From positions 38,565-102,564 of the forward strand of contig DASTWL010000012.1 of NCBI GenBank assembly GCA_035765895.1: a DNA stretch of 64,000 nt, written 5' to 3'. Of the stretch, positions 20,547 through 61,701 are shown piece by piece. This DNA is from Verrucomicrobiia bacterium (lineage in GTDB: Bacteria; Verrucomicrobiota; Verrucomicrobiia; Limisphaerales; DSYF01). A program made the position numbers and the translations under genes. Numbering within the stretch: position 1 is the stretch's first letter; the number at the start of each line of letters is the position of its first letter. A model generated the notes under the pieces. The model saw only the letters and a list, made by a program, of their open reading frames with translations. It ran no database searches and was not told where the DNA came from.

Positions 20547-20649
20547 ATCCTTAAGATGACTACCGCAGCCGCGCCGGGAAAATCAATTCCCGCGGGTTGA
20601 TCATGCCGGGGATCACCTCAGCCGCGCGGAGCGCGGTCTTGGCGGATCG

Positions 20650-20800
20650 CCCTTCCAATGGCCGACGAGGTTAGCTGTCGGGCTGGGCCTTGAAAGTGGC
20701 CTGAGCAGCGGTTGCCCGTCGCTCTGCGCCCCGCCCGGCGTGGTTCACACCGGGAATCTGGTTCCCCCGCCTGCAGCTTCAGGAAGGAAGCCGCAGTTAG
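20650..20800 (-). promoter_or_regulatory. candidate c-di-AMP riboswitch (ydaO-yuaA class) in the kup 5' leader
   Basis: The minus-strand RNA contains GGCGGGGGAACCA, CCGGUGUGAACC, GCCGGGCGGGG and CCCAGCCCGACAGCUAACCUCGUCGGCC. As I remember the ydaO consensus, these match its conserved blocks (GGGGGACCCA, GGGGUGAAUC, GGUAGGG, CCCGAAUCCG.CAGCUAACCUCGUAAGC). It ends about 105 nt upstream of the kup ATG. Confidence 0.55.
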
Positions 20801-21094
20801 GCTGCGTGGGTGAAGGTTACCGCAATGGTCGGACGGATGCAAACCCTCGGAAACATTGCCATTCGGGCAACGGCCCTTCACCGGCTGCGCCGAACCGGCC
20901 TGAAGGGCATTGTCACTTCAGGCGGCTTCATACCGCTCCAATCAAAAAATTTCGGTGTCGGCACGACGGGCAGAGCATGGTCACTCTGAGCGAACAAATC
21001 CGGGCGCCATCACCGCATAGCGGCCCATGACCAAAAACGGCAATCCACTTTCAGCCGCCTTGTTGATTATGGTTTGGAATGCGCCCCCGTCGCC

Positions 21095-34919: not shown

Positions 34920-37751
34920 TCACGCGCGTCCGTAGTGTTCGACCAGCGCGCGCAGCCGGGCGTTGAAGCCCCCGGCGGCGCGCAGTGTTTCGGTGGTCAG
35001 ATGCATCCGGTAGCGCCAGTAATGCCGCGGATTGGCGGGCACATTGATGCGCTCGGCGTGCGGATCCTCACGGCGCAACGATTCGTCCATGCCCAGCAAG
35101 TCCTGCAATTGAAAAATGCTCCACATGGCCGGCGATGCGAGATGCTGGCGGATGATGGCCTCGTTCAATTCGCCGGAACAATCTGCCGGCGCGGCGCCCG
35201 CCCGTCCGAGTTCCTCATTGAAGAAACGTTGCGTCAGTTGCGCATCCTCGGCCCACCAGCCGCGCAGGGTGCTCATGTCGTGCGTCGAGGGCGTGACCAC
35301 GCTGAGGTAGGGCGCCTCCGCGGGACGCGCGAAGGCCCGGTCCGGAGTTTTGGGCATGCGCTGGATTTCGAGGCTGAGGAGGCCGAGTTCCTTCATCACG
35401 CCGGGCACGCAGCCGGGCACGAGCCCGAGGTCTTCGCCGCAGATGAGCATGTTGGTGGCGCGCTTCAACCCTGGCAGCTTCTGCATGGCCTGCGTCCGCC
35501 AGAACCCATCCTGCCGGCGGAAAAAGTAATCCACATACAGCTCGCGCAACCGCGCCTGCGTGCCGGCATCCAGGGCGCGGAACGAGGCGGTCTTCTCCAT
35601 GTGAAACCGAAAATGAAACTGCCGTCCGCCGTCGCCGTCCGCCGCGAACAGCAGCACGTTGCTGATGAGTTCGAAGAGGCCGAGTTTGAGGCGTTGATCG
35701 TCCTGGGTTGGGGCCGCGGCGAATTCCGTAGTGGGACAGGCATCCTGCCTGTCCGGTGACTCATCCAATTCATCCGCCGCACTGGACCGGCAGGATGCCT
35801 GTCCCACTGCCCGGTTCGCGGGAGGCACGGAGGCGCGTTCGCTGAAATGCTCCTCCACCTGCCGCTGCGTGGCGAATTCCGGGCGCAACGCGAATTGCCC
35901 GGGCGCCACCGGCTGGAGGAACGTGGCTTTGACCGCCTCCGCCCCGGCACCGAACATTTCCCGCAGCACGGCGTCGGTGATGAACGGTGCGAGATAACGG
36001 GCGCGATCGAAGGGAATCCCGCGGGCCGCGAATTCGGCGAGGTCCACGGGAATCGCCGGCACGAAATGCCCCATGATGCCTTCCACGGCGTGCGCGGGAA
36101 TGCTCCAGATGCGAAAGAAGCCGAGGATGTGGTCGATGCGGAACGCGTCGAAGTAGTGGCCCATCTGGGCGAACCGCTGGCGCCACCACGCAAACCCATC
36201 CTCCATCATGCGCGGCCAGTTGTAGGTGGGGAAACTCCAGTTCTGACCTTTTTCTGCGAACGGATCGGGCGGCGCGCCCGCCTGGACGCTGAGATCGTAA
36301 AGTTCCGGCGCCTGCCAGGTATCCGCCCCGTAACGCGAGACGCCAATCGCAATGTCGCCCTTCAGAATCACGCCGCGCGCGTGGGCATGCTCGGCGGCCT
36401 CCTGCAACTGCCGGTGCAGGTGAAACTGGATGAAGTAATGCAACGCCACGGCGTCGAAGTCCGGCGCACTTTCGTCCGCGAGCGCGGCAATCTCCGCGGG
36501 CGTGCAACGCTGGTGTGCCGGCCATTGCCGCGGATCGGCCGAACCGTATTTGTCGCGCAGACAACAGAACACGGCGTAAGGCGTCAGCCAGGGCTGGTTT
36601 TCGGCGAAGAATTTTCGATACGCCGCGCTTTGAAACGTTTTGGCGCGTTGCGCGGTGCAGGCCCTTTTCAGGAACGCCAGCTTGGCCTGCATGACGGCGA
36701 CGTAATCCAGCTCGGGCAGGGCGTTGAGCCGCTGGCGCTCCGGTTCGAGCTCGCGCAACCAGGTTTTGGCCCGGCCCGTGGCCAGCGCCGCGAGGTTCAG
36801 GTAAAGCGGATGCAGTGCGAAGGCCGAAATCGCCGAATACGGATACGAATCCGTCCACGCATGCGTGGCGGTCGTGTCGTTGACCGGCAGGACCTGGATC
36901 AGTTTCAGGCCGGTCTGGGCGCACCAGTCGGCGAGCGGTTTGAGATCTGCGAATTCGCCCACGCCAAAACTGCTTTCGCTGCGCAGGCTGAACACCGGGA
37001 TGGCGACGCCAGCGCCCTTCCAGTCTGGGGCGGGCAGCCGCGCGAAGCCGTCATTCACGACCACCCGGCGCCGCGGCGCGGCAGGCTCTTCGAGTCGGCG
37101 GTTTTCGCCCGTTTCGTAAGCCAGCAGAAACCGCCGTTCCAGATCGAACACGCCGTATTTGTATTCGAGCGGCAACGCATCGCCCGCGAGGGCGAGGGTC
37201 GCCGTCAAAAAGTCCTCGCCGGGCATCCGGTTGAGCAGAACGGGATTCGTGGTTTCCCAACGGCCGAGCGCGGCGGCACTGCCGAGCAGGCACAACGTCT
37301 GGCCGCGCGCCAGCAGCGGGGCCTTCACCTTGAAGGTATGCGTGCCGTTGGCCGGCGCGGGCGTCTGGAACGGGGTTTGCCGCTCGCGCAAAAGCACGGC
37401 CTTGAACGGTTCGGTGTAGAAGGCGTTTTCGACGAAGCCAGCGGCGTTCCAGGCATCCACCACCAACACGTCGCCCTGTGCGCACAGTTCCCGCGTGAGC
37501 CGGCGATCCGTGCCCCAGTCGCTGACGATGGAACCGTCGGCTTCCCGGAGGAGGTAATGATAGGCCAGACCGTCGGCGGGCAGGGCCTCGGGAGTGGGGA
37601 TTTCGAGGGAACCGACCCAGCTTTCCGCGTCGTGATACTGCAACGGCAGGGCGTGGTCCGGGTGGTCGTTGCCGAGCCAGGGATGCGGACCGGTGAGGTG
37701 CAGGGATTGCCCGAATTCGGTGTGGAACCGCAGCTTGAAACTCACCTTCAT
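34920..37751 (-). CDS. malQ: 4-alpha-glucanotransferase (GH77, DPE2-like) with N-terminal starch-binding modules
   Basis: The N-terminus is CBM20-like ([19 protein letters not shown]). The GH77 core reads [30 protein letters not shown]. It carries an in-frame repeat insertion at 35730-35808. Confidence 0.88.
35730..35808. repeat. hairpin-pair (MITE/REP-like) palindromic element inside malQ
   Basis: The terminal inverted repeats are AGTGGGACAGGCATCCTGCC ... GGCAGGATGCCTGTCCCACT. Each arm is itself a hairpin (ggacaggca-tcc-tgcctgtcc and ggaccggca-gga-tgcctgtcc). It is translated in frame as [14 protein letters not shown]. Confidence 0.8.
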
Positions 37752-37869: not shown

Positions 37870-37954
37870 TGGTGCGCACGGCAGGACTTGAACCTGCACG
37901 ATGTTACTCACTAGAACCTGAATCTAGCGCGTCTGCCAATTCCGCCACGTGCGC
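37870..37954 (-). tRNA. tRNA-Leu (anticodon CAG)
   Basis: The reverse complement is GCGCACGTGGCGGAATTGGCAGACGCGCTAGATTCAGGTTCTAGTGAGTAACATCGTGCAGGTTCAAGTCCTGCCGTGCGCACCA. It has a 7-bp acceptor stem, an anticodon stem CTAGA/TCTAG with loop TTCAGGT, a long variable arm, a T-arm GGTTCAAGTCC, and an encoded CCA. Confidence 0.92.
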
Positions 37955-58284: not shown

Positions 58285-61200
58285 ATGGACTATAAAGAAA
58301 CGCTGAATTTGCCGCGCACGGACTTTCCAATGAAGGCCGACCTGGTCACCCGCGAGCCGGAACGGCTCAACCAGTGGCAGGCCAGCCGGCTTTACGAACG
58401 CATCCAGGCCTCGCGGGCCAACGCGCCCCGGTTCGTGCTGCACGACGGCCCGCCGTTTGCCAATGGCGACGTCCACATCGGCACGGCGCTGAACAAGATT
58501 CTCAAGGACATCATCCTCAAATACCAGACCCTGCGCGGGAAGCGGGCGCCTTACATCCCGGGCTGGGATTGCCACGGGCTGCCCATCGAATTCAAGGTCT
58601 CGCAGGAAATGCGCAAGGCTGGCAACACCGACGCCGATGCGGCGACCATTCGCAAGGCGTGCGAGGCTTACGCGCGCAAATACATCGACATCCAGCGCGA
58701 ACAATTCAAACGCCTCGGCGTGTTGGGCGATTGGGACCATCCCTACCTCACGCTCAACAAGGAATATGAGGCGGACGAATTGCGCCTGTTCGCGGACATC
58801 GTGGAGCAGGGTTTTGTTTATCGCGGCAAAAAGCCGGTGTATTGGAGCATTCCGTGCCGCACCGCGCTGGCCGAGGCGGAAGTGGAATACCAGGACCACG
58901 TCAGCCAGAGCGTGTTTGTGAAATTCCCGGTCGTTGGGCAGCCGAAGACCTTTGTCGTGATCTGGACCACCACACCCTGGACGTTGCCGGCGAACCTTGC
59001 GGTCGCCTACAACGCCAGTTTCCAATACGTGCAGGCCGAAGTGGCGGGCGAAACCTACATCCTGTTTCGGGACCTGCTGCCGCAGGTGGCGGACAAATGC
59101 GGCTGGAGCAGCTTCAGCCAGCGTGACCTGCCCACCGAAGCCCTGGCGAAGCTGGTGTATCAGCATCCGTTCTGCGATCGCACAGGCCGGCTGTTCCCGG
59201 CGGAGTTTGTCACGAGCGACACGGGCACGGGCTTCGTGCACATCGCGCCCGGGCACGGCCTGGAGGACTACGGCCTCGGCCGGCAGGTCGGGCTGCCGGT
59301 TTACTCGCCGGTGGACGACAATGGCTGCCTGACCTACACCAACGACCTGCCAATGGAGCAACAGATGCCGCCCGAAATGGCCGGCAAATCCATCCTCGAA
59401 AAACACGGCAAGAGCGACGCGAATGAAGCCGTGCTGCACGAATTGCGCGTGCGCCATGCGTTGCTGCATCAGGAGAATTACCACCACAGCTACCCGCATT
59501 GCTGGCGCAGCAAGACGCCGGTCATTTTCCGCGCGATGGACCAGTGGTTCATCAAGATTGACCACGCCGTAGTGGGACAGGCGTCTCGCCTGTCCAGCGA
59601 GCGTTCCAACGCGAGCAGTGCTGGCGACGCGCAACCGGAAAGGCAAGATGCCTGTCCCACTTTCCGCCAGCGAGCTCTCGCCGAGATTGATGCCGTGAAG
59701 TGGATTCCGGACTGGGGCATCAACCGCATCAAGAGTGCCGTGCAGACGCGTCCCGACTGGTGCATCAGCCGGCAGCGCACGTGGGGCGTGCCGATTCCGG
59801 CCTTTTACGACGCGCAGGGCGAGCCCCTGCTCGATGCCCGCGTCGTCCGCAACGTGGCGCAGCTCATCGAGCAGCACGGCAGCAACGTGTGGTTTGAAAA
59901 GGACGCCGCGGAACTGTGGTCCCTGGTGAAGCCCGCGGATTGGAACGGTCCGGAAGCCGTGGCCAAGTCCGGCGACACGCTCGACGTGTGGATTGATTCC
60001 GGCAGCTCGTCACGCGCGGTGCTGATGCAGCGCCCGGAACTTTCCCGCTCCGCACTTCGCACTCCGCACTCCGCACCCGACTGGCAGGCCGACATGTATT
60101 TCGAAGGCTCGGACCAGCACCGCGGCTGGTTCCAGAGTTCGCTCCTGCTCTCGCTGGCCGGCAATGGCGCCGCGCCGTTCAAGACCGTGCTCACGCATGG
60201 CTTCATGGTGGACGCCGACCGCGAAAAGATTTCCAAGAGCAAGCAGGGCGGCTACGAGAAGCCGCAGACCGCCGAGGCCTACGTGAAGAAGTGGGGCGCC
60301 GACGTCGTGCGCCTCTGGGTGTCGTCGCAGGATTTCCGCAACGACATCGTCGTGAGCGAGGAACGCATCAACAAGGTGGGCGAAACCTACCGCGGCATCC
60401 GCAACGCGTTGCGTTACCAGCTATCGAATCTCTATGACTTCGACCCGGCAAAACATACCGTGGCGGACGATAAACTGACCGGCCTGGACCGCTGGATTCT
60501 CGCCGAGTTCAGCAAGGTGGAGGCGGACGTGCTCAAGGCCTACGACGCGCAGGAGTTCCACGTCGTTTACCAGAAGCTCAGCCAGTTCATCGCGGTGGAG
60601 CTGTCCTCGGTCTATCACGATGTGATCAAAGACCGGATGTATACCGACGCCGCCAACTCTGCTCGCCGCCGCTCGACGCAGACGGCGTTGCATCGGTTGG
60701 TAATGGGCTTGTGCAAAATGCTCGCGCCGATTCTCGCATTCACGGCGGACGAAGCGTGGGCCTTCATTCCCGGCAAGCCGACGGAAACGGTGCATGAAGC
60801 AGAGTTGAAGTCGGCGAGTTTCGTTTTGTCAGAAGCGGAACAAGCCAGTTGGAAGATGCTCTTCGAACTGCGCAATTCTGCTCTTCCCCAACTGGAGAAA
60901 GCGCGCCAAGGCAAGCAGATCGGGAAATCACTCGAAGCTGCACTTGAGCTTCATGTGCCAAACGCATTGAAGGAGGTTGTAGCAGGTCCAATTCAAACCG
61001 AGGCTGCTGTTATCTGCGAGACTCCAACTGGGCACGGCTACTCTCAAGAATACATTTCTTTATGGCCTTCATTCCTCAAGGAGGAATGGCGAGTCCAGAT
61101 CCAGGAGTTGTTTGGCGTTTCCCAGTTCGCTTATCAGTTCGAGCAAACGAAGCGCCTCTGGTTTGTTGTCAAGAAAGCCGATGGCCAGAAGTGCGAGCGC

Positions 61201-61293
61201 TGCTGGCATTGGGAAACTGATGTGGGTTCCAGCCCAGAGCATCCCACCATTTGCGCCCGTTGCGTCGAGGCGGTGAAGCAGTTCAAAGCCTGA
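58285..61293 (+). CDS. ileS: isoleucine--tRNA ligase
   Basis: It has PFANGDVHIGT (HIGH region), KISKSK (KMSKS), a CP1 editing domain, and C-terminal Zn-finger cysteines (CERCW..CARC). The start is at MDYKETLNLP. It contains an in-frame repeat at 59571-59661 and a lower-G+C 3' end from about 60790. Confidence 0.93.
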   Translation: MDYKETLNLPRTDFPMKADLVTREPERLNQWQASRLYERIQASRANAPRFVLHDGPPFANGDVHIGTALNKILKDIILKYQTLRGKRAPYIPGWDCHGLPIEFKVSQEMRKAGNTDADAATIRKACEAYARKYIDIQREQFKRLGVLGDWDHPYLTLNKEYEADELRLFADIVEQGFVYRGKKPVYWSIPCRTALAEAEVEYQDHVSQSVFVKFPVVGQPKTFVVIWTTTPWTLPANLAVAYNASFQYVQAEVAGETYILFRDLLPQVADKCGWSSFSQRDLPTEALAKLVYQHPFCDRTGRLFPAEFVTSDTGTGFVHIAPGHGLEDYGLGRQVGLPVYSPVDDNGCLTYTNDLPMEQQMPPEMAGKSILEKHGKSDANEAVLHELRVRHALLHQENYHHSYPHCWRSKTPVIFRAMDQWFIKIDHAVVGQASRLSSERSNASSAGDAQPERQDACPTFRQRALAEIDAVKWIPDWGINRIKSAVQTRPDWCISRQRTWGVPIPAFYDAQGEPLLDARVVRNVAQLIEQHGSNVWFEKDAAELWSLVKPADWNGPEAVAKSGDTLDVWIDSGSSSRAVLMQRPELSRSALRTPHSAPDWQADMYFEGSDQHRGWFQSSLLLSLAGNGAAPFKTVLTHGFMVDADREKISKSKQGGYEKPQTAEAYVKKWGADVVRLWVSSQDFRNDIVVSEERINKVGETYRGIRNALRYQLSNLYDFDPAKHTVADDKLTGLDRWILAEFSKVEADVLKAYDAQEFHVVYQKLSQFIAVELSSVYHDVIKDRMYTDAANSARRRSTQTALHRLVMGLCKMLAPILAFTADEAWAFIPGKPTETVHEAELKSASFVLSEAEQASWKMLFELRNSALPQLEKARQGKQIGKSLEAALELHVPNALKEVVAGPIQTEAAVICETPTGHGYSQEYISLWPSFLKEEWRVQIQELFGVSQFAYQFEQTKRLWFVVKKADGQKCERCWHWETDVGSSPEHPTICARCVEAVKQFKA
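59571..59661. repeat. hairpin-pair (MITE/REP-like) palindromic element inside ileS
   Basis: AGTGGGACAGGCGTCTCGCCTGTCC ... GGAAAGGCAAGATGCCTGTCCCACT has the same termini as the malQ copy. It is translated in frame as VGQASRLSS..ERQDACPT. Confidence 0.75.
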
Positions 61294-61325
61294 ATTTCGG
61301 AGGTGAGAATTTGGTTGGTCGCTCT

Positions 61326-61475
61326 CCCTCATCCCGGCCTTCTCCCCAAGGAGAAGGAGAATTATTCGCCGGTTTTCTGAAAGATCGAGTGACTGGATTT
61401 GCCCGGCGACCTGTCGCAAAACCAAACACGCATCGGCGCGGTTCCTTCTCCCGGGGGAGAAGGTCAGGATGAGGG
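61326..61475. repeat. MITE-like element with ~32-bp terminal inverted repeats (CCTGACC-hairpin family)
   Basis: The left arm is ccctcatcccggccttctccccaaggagaagg. The right arm is ccttctcccgggggagaaggtcaggatgaggg, whose reverse complement is nearly identical to the left arm. Each arm has its own hairpin. The element lies 33 nt after the ileS stop. Confidence 0.7.
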
Positions 61476-61701
61476 CGGGCAACACACCATTTGCAGATCA
61501 GGCGCATTGTATTGTCGGCCTCCGAAAGCGGAGCTGAAGCGGCAGCACTCCAGGTGCTGTCGCGTTTAGATGGTAGGTGACGACGTAAGGAGTCTCACTT
61601 TAGAAACCGGCAGGGAGATTAACAGGCGAATGGGGAGAAACGAATTGAGGATAAGTTAGAGACTCGCCACCCCGTCTCCTACCATTGTTAAGGCGCTTCG
61701 C

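Follow-up and report, generated by a model that had tools for sequence, protein, structure and literature searches.

How does the gene of an essential aminoacyl-tRNA synthetase come to be read straight through a pair of DNA hairpins? The question is raised by ileS, the gene of isoleucyl-tRNA synthetase (IleRS), in a 64,000-nucleotide stretch of DNA from a Verrucomicrobiia bacterium (Limisphaerales; GCA_035765895.1, contig DASTWL010000012.1), which we analyzed at its full length and refer to as the window. An earlier note, made from the letters of this DNA, had described a 91-bp inverted-repeat element at 59571-59661 within ileS and a second copy within a malQ gene of the window. We find that the element is a tail-to-tail dimer of a repetitive extragenic palindromic (REP) sequence with a GT(A/G)G head and is thus REPIN-like, REPIN being the name for the REP dimer unit. 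Very probably, this unit is selfish or neutral DNA of the kind mobilized by REP-associated tyrosine transposases (RAYTs), tolerated in a surface loop of IleRS. An essential and highly conserved enzyme would then bear a 30-residue loop of selfish-DNA origin.

The host gene occupies positions 58285-61293 on the plus strand and consists of a single open reading frame (ORF) of 1002 codons, whose product has Pfam matches to tRNA-synt_1 (residues 27-689), Anticodon_1 (735-887) and zf-FPG_IleRS (967-995) and is identical to a database protein (P0001). Both the DNA sequence and the ORF translation confirm that the element is read in frame. In full, it spans 93 bp of the plus strand (59569-59661, GTAGTGGGACAGGC...GCCTGTCCCACT); its 91-nt core (59571-59661) is AGTGGGACAGGC...GCCTGTCCCACT, which may also be written AGTGGGACAGGCGTCTCGCCTGTCC...GGAAAGGCAAGATGCCTGTCCCACT, with ccGT just before it. 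The junction codons are GAC CAC GCC GTA GTG GGA CAG GCG TCT CGC CTG TCC ... AGG CAA GAT GCC TGT CCC ACT TTC CGC, so that the protein reads DQWFIKIDH-AVVGQASRLSSERSNASSAGDAQPERQDACPT-FRQRALAEIDAVKWIPDWG across the insert. Compared to orthologs in which the site is empty, the net gain in the window ileS is 90 nt, or 30 codons.

The left REP arm (59569-59595, plus strand) starts with a GTAG and GTGG head, followed by the hairpin GGACAGGCG-TCT-CGCCTGTCC, whose 9-nt stem (59575-59583 paired to 59587-59595) is 100% complementary. The right arm (59637-59661, GGAAAGGCAAGATGCCTGTCCCACT) is inverted, on the minus strand, and has one mismatch in its inner stem. Between the arms lies a variable spacer of 41 nt (59596-59636), which encodes SERSNASSAGDAQP. 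The copy folds with -57 to -61 kcal/mol (z about -6 to -7), and when both strands of the ileS and malQ copies were folded, all proved far more stable than shuffled controls (z -6.4 to -10.4). An Rfam scan of the window at the gathering threshold found no family covering the ileS element. We also considered an intein or intron at this place and rejected it, as there are no intein-like junction residues and no Rfam match.

The second copy is located at 35728-35808 on the minus strand, and both of its arms have the ATCCT type of loop. Its host, which it enters in frame, is the gene of a malQ-like 4-alpha-glucanotransferase with CBM20 and GH77 domains (ORF 34920-37751, minus strand). As had been noticed before, the two copies have identical termini (left, ccgtAGTGGGACAGGC; right, GATGCCTGTCCCACT), joined by unrelated spacers. 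The exact 12-mer AGTGGGACAGGC occurs four times in the window, at both ends of the ileS copy and of the copy at 35730-35808, and the arm hairpin GGACAGGC-N(1-9)-GCCTGTCC occurs twice, compared to an expectation of 0.00.

Both copies belong to a dispersed family, as the earlier note had supposed. A scan with one genome per species, in which both 12-nt ends were required, returned 110 copies at 105 loci (112 copies with the two from the window), with in-frame copies in ileS and in other genes. The loci are mostly in metagenome-assembled genomes (MAGs) of Verrucomicrobiota (Limisphaerales and others), the others being from Acidobacteriota (Bryobacterales, Solibacteraceae), and single related MAGs, for example JACRJY01 and JBIIUN01, contain at least ten perfect-ended copies. 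Core lengths range from 69 to 99 nt. Each arm is a separate hairpin, GGACAGGC-N-TCY-N-GCCTGTCC, with a 9-bp stem (GGACAGGCN / NGCCTGTCC) and a TCY loop; this hairpin can also be given as GTGGGACAGGC and the REP sequence as GTAGTGGGACAGGCNTCYNGCCTGTCC. Covariation in the stem is clear: in 208 arms, the pair closing the loop is T-A in 77, A-T in 65, G-C in 47 and C-G in 11, which makes 96% of the pairs Watson-Crick. Among the dimers, heterodimers predominate, the combination of ATCTT and TTCCA being the commonest (28 cases). The tetranucleotide GTGG stands right before the stem within the invariant core (A-GTGG-GACAGGC), and at 40% of the ends a further GT ahead of the core extends it to GTAGTGG...CCACTAC (taken singly, the G is present at 52% and the T at 61% of the ends). 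In one variant (L110), GTAG is placed directly on GACAGGC.

We called a copy intragenic if its reading frame was open for at least 40 codons on each side and if, in both flanks, the GC content of third codon positions (GC3) was at least 0.15 above that of second positions (GC2), with first positions (GC1) also above GC2. By this measure, 49 of the 112 copies (~44%) are in frame inside genes; neither these nor the ileS copy are extragenic, and intragenic REPs already have a place in the literature. In ten hosts (UvrA, RF3, UvrD, DnaE, AlaRS, a 4Fe-4S oxidoreductase, LigA, PurH, PutA and MutS), Pfam domains are found on both sides of the insert or are split by it.

The two hosts in the window lie on opposite strands and, as the earlier note had pointed out, nevertheless read the element as the same terminal peptides, VGQAS...RQDACPT. 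This is because the ends are near-palindromic: for both window copies, either strand read in this frame yields VGQAS...DRxDACPT. The spans from GTAG to CTAC, 83 and 95 nt in the two copies, both leave a remainder of 2 on division by 3. The further suggestion that this is the one frame free of stop codons did not hold up: five of six frames are open in the ileS copy and three of six in the malQ copy, only the frame that reads the TAG in the GTAG head being closed, and two frames are used across the family. With five frames open in the ileS copy, we rejected the idea that the frame is shared solely because it avoids stop codons.

Among the 49 intragenic copies, 35 are read as xVGQAS(S/R)LS..., 14 as SGTG(F/I/V)xPV... 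and none in the frame that meets the TAG of GTAG. The three frames are open in 169, 146 and 55 of 224 strand-frames, respectively, and availability alone would therefore predict about 22, 19 and 7 copies. With 35 copies observed against about 22 predicted, the VGQAS frame is over-used, in a count that includes orthologous, and thus non-independent, copies. The excess may point to selection for the small, polar peptide that this frame encodes.

For the IleRS site itself, the earlier note had proposed an alignment of orthologs. When we compared the 120 closest IleRS proteins (71-100% identity), KIDH-x was followed directly by FRQ in 23, and 97 (81%) had 6-46 extra residues there. These inserts are of at least five kinds, three other GTAG...CTAC dimers among them. 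Where the site is empty, its DNA is ATT GAC CAC GCC AAC TTC CGC (L108) or ...CAT GCT GAT TTT CGC (L109), and a third ortholog has H-A-T-F-R at the protein level (P0036). Orthologs with an empty site thus exist, and IleRS clearly tolerates about 30 extra residues at this position.

An independent assembly (L106), whose IleRS is 77% identical, carries the same REP family at identical junctions, with another arm type (GGCTTCCAGCC) and a spacer that is unrelated to the window's and cannot be aligned with it. A sequencing or assembly error at the site, which the earlier note had named as fatal to its claim, is excluded, because P0001 stands unchanged on record and because L106 has the family at the same junctions.

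Five further orthologs, compared at the site corresponding to window positions 59563-59661, show how varied the filling is. Their inserts are GTAGGACAGGCGTCGCGCCTGTC...GTCCTAC (L110, fold z -11.1), GTAGGAGACGACGTGAGGAGTCTC...CTCCTAC (L111, z -4.3), GTAGCCGCCGACGTTAGTC...GCGGCTAC (L112, z -7.7), TTGGAGTGCGGCGACATGTCGCCGC...GCACTCCAAG (L113, z -5.8) and heptamer repeats without a palindromic fold (L107, z -0.9); next to the heptamer arrays there are thus three further families of GTAG...CTAC dimers and one palindrome of the TTGGAGTGCG type. The heptamer arrays (GCGGAGT and TCGAAAC) are those of the closest relative, at 79% identity. In a neighbor-joining tree computed from conserved columns, empty sites and insert types are interspersed, which implies many gains, losses or replacements at the site. 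No other point in this IleRS is used for insertions nearly as often; the second in frequency is near residues 556-562, and a rare one is at 253. A loop that is empty in some close relatives and filled with unrelated repeats in others is in effect a natural experiment on how well IleRS tolerates insertions. In annotation, much of the spread in length among verrucomicrobial IleRS proteins (927-1034 aa) can be put down to these repeats, as can motifs that recur in unrelated proteins (VGQASxLS, SGTGxxPV, TGxxPVPL and DRxDACPT).

Within the protein, the insert corresponds to residues 428-458. The earlier note had put it near the junction of the catalytic core and the anticodon-binding region; this has to be corrected, as it lies inside tRNA-synt_1, ~190 residues before KMSKS (K648-S652) and ~280 before Anticodon_1. 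It is the sole stretch that remains unaligned in comparisons with solved IleRS structures, and the solved structures aligned have nothing at its position, which in 1FFY (S. aureus) is between residues 417 and 420 and in 8C9E between 415 and 417. With the domain architecture of IleRS taken from PMC11685878, the alignments place the insert in the connective-polypeptide region just past the editing (CP1) domain, in the middle of the catalytic domain. The loop is probably surface-exposed and disordered, and the IleRS bearing it presumably fully active.

The connection to transposition comes from related MAGs. At L045, the 634 bp between two copies of the family code for a Y1 HUH transposase that contains LPHW...YFVTFRL and NHVHLIV motifs and has a Pfam match to Y1_Tnp (E 1.6e-7). 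Its database homologs are mostly 200-230 aa long and carry the JGI name 'REP element-mobilizing transposase RayT'; tblastn found relatives in a second copy within L045, in L099 and in L007. Family repeats flank the RAYT genes twice in L045 and once in L099. RAYTs are single-strand-specific HUH tyrosine transposases, and from this adjacency, seen in related genomes and not in the window's own, it appears that a RAYT moved the family and, by extension, may have moved the ileS copy.

We propose that a RAYT-type system spread REP dimers in these lineages and that ileS received one copy, by insertion or by inheritance, in a surface loop after the editing (CP1) domain. Insertions in genes would survive only if they are a multiple of three in length, avoid the TAG frame and fall into loops that accept a flexible peptide. 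The ileS insert is a multiple of three, avoids the TAG of its GTAG head and encodes a small, polar and probably disordered peptide, which would be why an essential IleRS tolerates it and the copy persists.

Several observations weigh against this proposal. The L045 transposase reaches 72.8 bits with the NCBIfam model for REP-associated tyrosine transposases (REP_Tyr_transpos), whose cut-off is 80, and a tblastn search for RAYT across the 64-kb window found none. The ileS copy has GTAGTGG at its left end, and at its right end it is without the CTAC tail, the flank being tt. An AlphaFold2 model of the 1002-residue IleRS, built with 76 close homologs, has a mean predicted local distance difference test score (pLDDT) of 53, with residues 369-458 all below 50, and is too poor to place the loop. 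Finally, the arms of the window and L106 copies are identical at 52 of 58 positions (90%), compared to 62-74% at third codon positions of the flanks. Since arm conservation exceeds the third-position level, pure neutral persistence fails to explain the arms, and something beyond neutrality acts on them, the candidates being transposase recognition, gene conversion between copies, re-insertion, or a role of the hairpin in RNA or DNA.

In a different explanation, the hairpin pair is kept in ileS for its effect at the RNA level: it might pause translation, serve as a site for RNase III or for mRNA stability, or control the synthesis of IleRS in the manner of an attenuator, and the peptide would be a by-product. 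Such a role would fit the conservation of the arms next to an unalignable spacer, the strong stem covariation and the very stable fold, as well as the presence of an insert in 97 of 120 orthologs, where five of six filled sites read as DNA fold as palindromes. However, 23 orthologs have an empty site, the heptamer insert of L107 does not fold, the element matches no Rfam family, and the same repeats also occur in dozens of unrelated genes and in intergenic DNA. Moreover, equal arm conservation is predicted by transposase recognition, recent re-insertion or gene conversion. We consider an RNA-level role quite unlikely.

Alternatively, the extra loop could have been recruited for the function of the IleRS protein in this clade, for instance to make a new contact with tRNA or with a partner. 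That the extra residues of all 97 filled orthologs sit at exactly this loop speaks for recruitment, yet the inserts are derived from at least five unrelated DNA repeats, have no peptide motif in common save an initial V and a final T, and are of low-complexity composition (S, A, G, Q, E), and filled and empty states are interspersed on the tree; this makes a recruited loop very improbable in our view. An ordinary miniature inverted-repeat transposable element, that is, a deleted insertion sequence moved via its terminal inverted repeats by a DDE transposase, would match the long terminal inverted repeats (~25-30 nt) and the size (70-100 bp), but we rejected it, leaving it next to no probability, because target-site duplications of 2-8 bp were not above shuffled-partner controls under either definition of the boundary, and also because the arms form hairpins of their own, headed by GT(A/G)G, and the only transposase found beside copies is Y1/RAYT.

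The REPIN-like reading can be set beside systems already known. The REPIN/RAYT system was reportedly worked out by Nunvar et al. in 2010, Bertels and Rainey in 2011 and Ton-Hoang et al. in 2012. Our element resembles it in that two inverted REPs and a spacer are foldable as one long hairpin, in that RAYT genes (here in related MAGs) are flanked by repeats of the family, and in the lack of a target-site duplication. Unlike classical REPINs, which are extragenic, close to half of the family copies are intragenic, and their mobilization is here inferred from sequence. In its mode, the ileS insert is also like the Rickettsia palindromic elements (RPE), its classic parallel, which are said to lie in frame in many housekeeping genes (the report being that of Ogata et al. 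in 2000): in both cases, in-frame palindromic inserts in housekeeping genes are tolerated as peptide loops. The likeness goes no further: RPE-1 is presumably unrelated in sequence, it is longer (about 100-150 bp), and its host is an obligate intracellular alphaproteobacterium. We know of no RAYT link for RPE-1.

GTAG- and CGTC-headed REPs and their dimers have been described by Di Nocera, De Gregorio and Rocco (2013; BMC Genomics 14:522, PMC3733652). According to that study, REPs lie within genes in several species, with the highest numbers in Opitutus terrae, a member of the Verrucomicrobia, and many of the genes concerned serve replication and repair (uvrA, dnaE2, ligase) or code for tRNA synthetases. 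One of its tables gives GTGVPPV and TGGTPVP as peptides of the GTAG-19 REP of O. terrae, and we find that these back-translate to the core found here, GGGACAGGCGTCCCGCCTGTC. Our family shares with the intragenic GTAG REPs a head tetranucleotide followed by a short hairpin, tail-to-tail dimers and variable spacers, and in both the genes of uvrA, dnaE2, ligase, RF3 and tRNA synthetases are lengthened in frame by 20-30 residues. It differs from O. terrae GTAG-19 in its host, another Verrucomicrobiae MAG, and in its arm variants with GTCTC and ATCTT loops.

Another entry of the table is a CGTC-1 dimer at residues 467-488 of the Erythrobacter litoralis IleRS (ELI_13550), which, being CGTC-type, is unlike the ileS copy. 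A chimeric protein query made for the E. litoralis IleRS matched only short IleRS fragments from Verrucomicrobia. The study also reports differing REPs at about one recB site in two Xanthomonas species, and the part of it consulted contains no case of one site being reused as in IleRS, where 97 of 120 orthologs are filled by at least five kinds of insert. In-frame REP dimers, including those in Verrucomicrobia and in an IleRS, are thus already published, and the ileS copy adds an example, not a principle. Beyond what the earlier note had seen, the element is of the RAYT-associated kind of REP dimer, and intragenic copies of this kind were on record.

The part most worth following up are the in-frame RAYT cassettes in dnaE. 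At L045:561-4679 (minus strand), a single dnaE contains two complete REP-RAYT-REP cassettes in frame, and the order of its Pfam domains is PHP, Y1_Tnp, DNA_pol3_alpha, finger, Y1_Tnp, HHH_6. A frame break near L045:2500, in a long-read contig, looks like a one-base assembly error. An orthologous dnaE (L021:4304-4375) has a solo REP dimer at the exact site of the cassette at L045:561-1367, with both flanks matching. The pair suggests either that the RAYT was lost by recombination between the flanking dimers or that it was inserted into a resident dimer. At L099:1100-2100, a RAYT with REP clusters on either side is in frame in a large UDPGP-family gene (UTP-glucose-1-phosphate uridylyltransferase-like), and a further REP cluster is found downstream in the same protein. 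A literature search of the searchable library for in-frame RAYT in dnaE yielded nothing beyond PMC3733652, and these cassettes may be new observations.

Taken jointly with the IleRS site, the cassettes permit a bolder reading, in which the loop after the editing domain is more than permissive and truly serves as a landing pad: one REP-dimer family after another, each with a GTAG head, would insert at the resident repeat or take its place, and dimers inside genes would be footprints of whole REP-RAYT-REP cassettes able to sit in frame in essential genes. The footprint part draws on the two orthologous dnaE genes, one with two cassettes and the other with a solo dimer at the matching site. We regard the joint reading as doubtful. 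Were it true, the replicative polymerase could carry the transposase as one of its domains, and so bring it to the very single-stranded DNA on which its family acts.

Some members of the family are of interest for their own structure. A MAG labelled Kapaibacterium (JBIIUN01 contigs; L002, L018, L024, L026, L036, L051, L080, L085 and others) has variants of 95-99 nt with two extra inner hairpins (GGGGCTTCCAGCCCC), in which the same loop is reused on another stem. Copies from Bryobacterales (L015, L027, L046, L056, L063, L087, L104) have the same stem and ends with six-base loops, CTCCTG or CTCCCG; as the acidobacterial copies have such loops of their own, loop subfamilies track phylum. At L081:1237-1431, a REP dimer and ~45 nt of host coding sequence are duplicated in tandem, resulting in two in-frame copies 120 nt apart in one protein. 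A few of the family-bearing MAGs are oddly labelled, Bifidobacteriaceae among them, perhaps through mis-binning or mis-labelling.

Besides its two family copies, the window holds one related cluster of REP-like hairpins (1003-1170, no strand assigned), which is situated between ORFs near the window start, outside the ileS element. It has GTAG/CTAC tags and carries the same loop motifs, GGCATCCTGCC / GCTTCCAGC, on different stems. A repeat of a different family (CTCCCTCATCCCGGCCTTCTCCCC...GGAGAAGG) lies at 61312-61489, 19 nt past the ileS stop codon; it is a 47-nt inverted repeat with 81% complementarity, its halves 84 nt apart. The only Rfam matches in the window are a c-di-AMP riboswitch (20645-20813, minus strand, 51.3 bits) and a tRNA gene (37873-37954, minus strand).

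The IleRS of the window has two further peculiarities. A second insert of 31 aa (AAVICETPTGHGYSQEYISLWPSFLKEEWRV), encoded at 61003-61095, is peculiar to this IleRS (1% of orthologs); it is non-palindromic and seems to have a higher AT content than the sequence around it. The HIGH signature of class I, encoded at 58474-58485 (residues 64-67), reads HIGT, and its threonine is invariant in 76 of 76 aligned relatives, where the solved IleRS 8C9E has HMGH.

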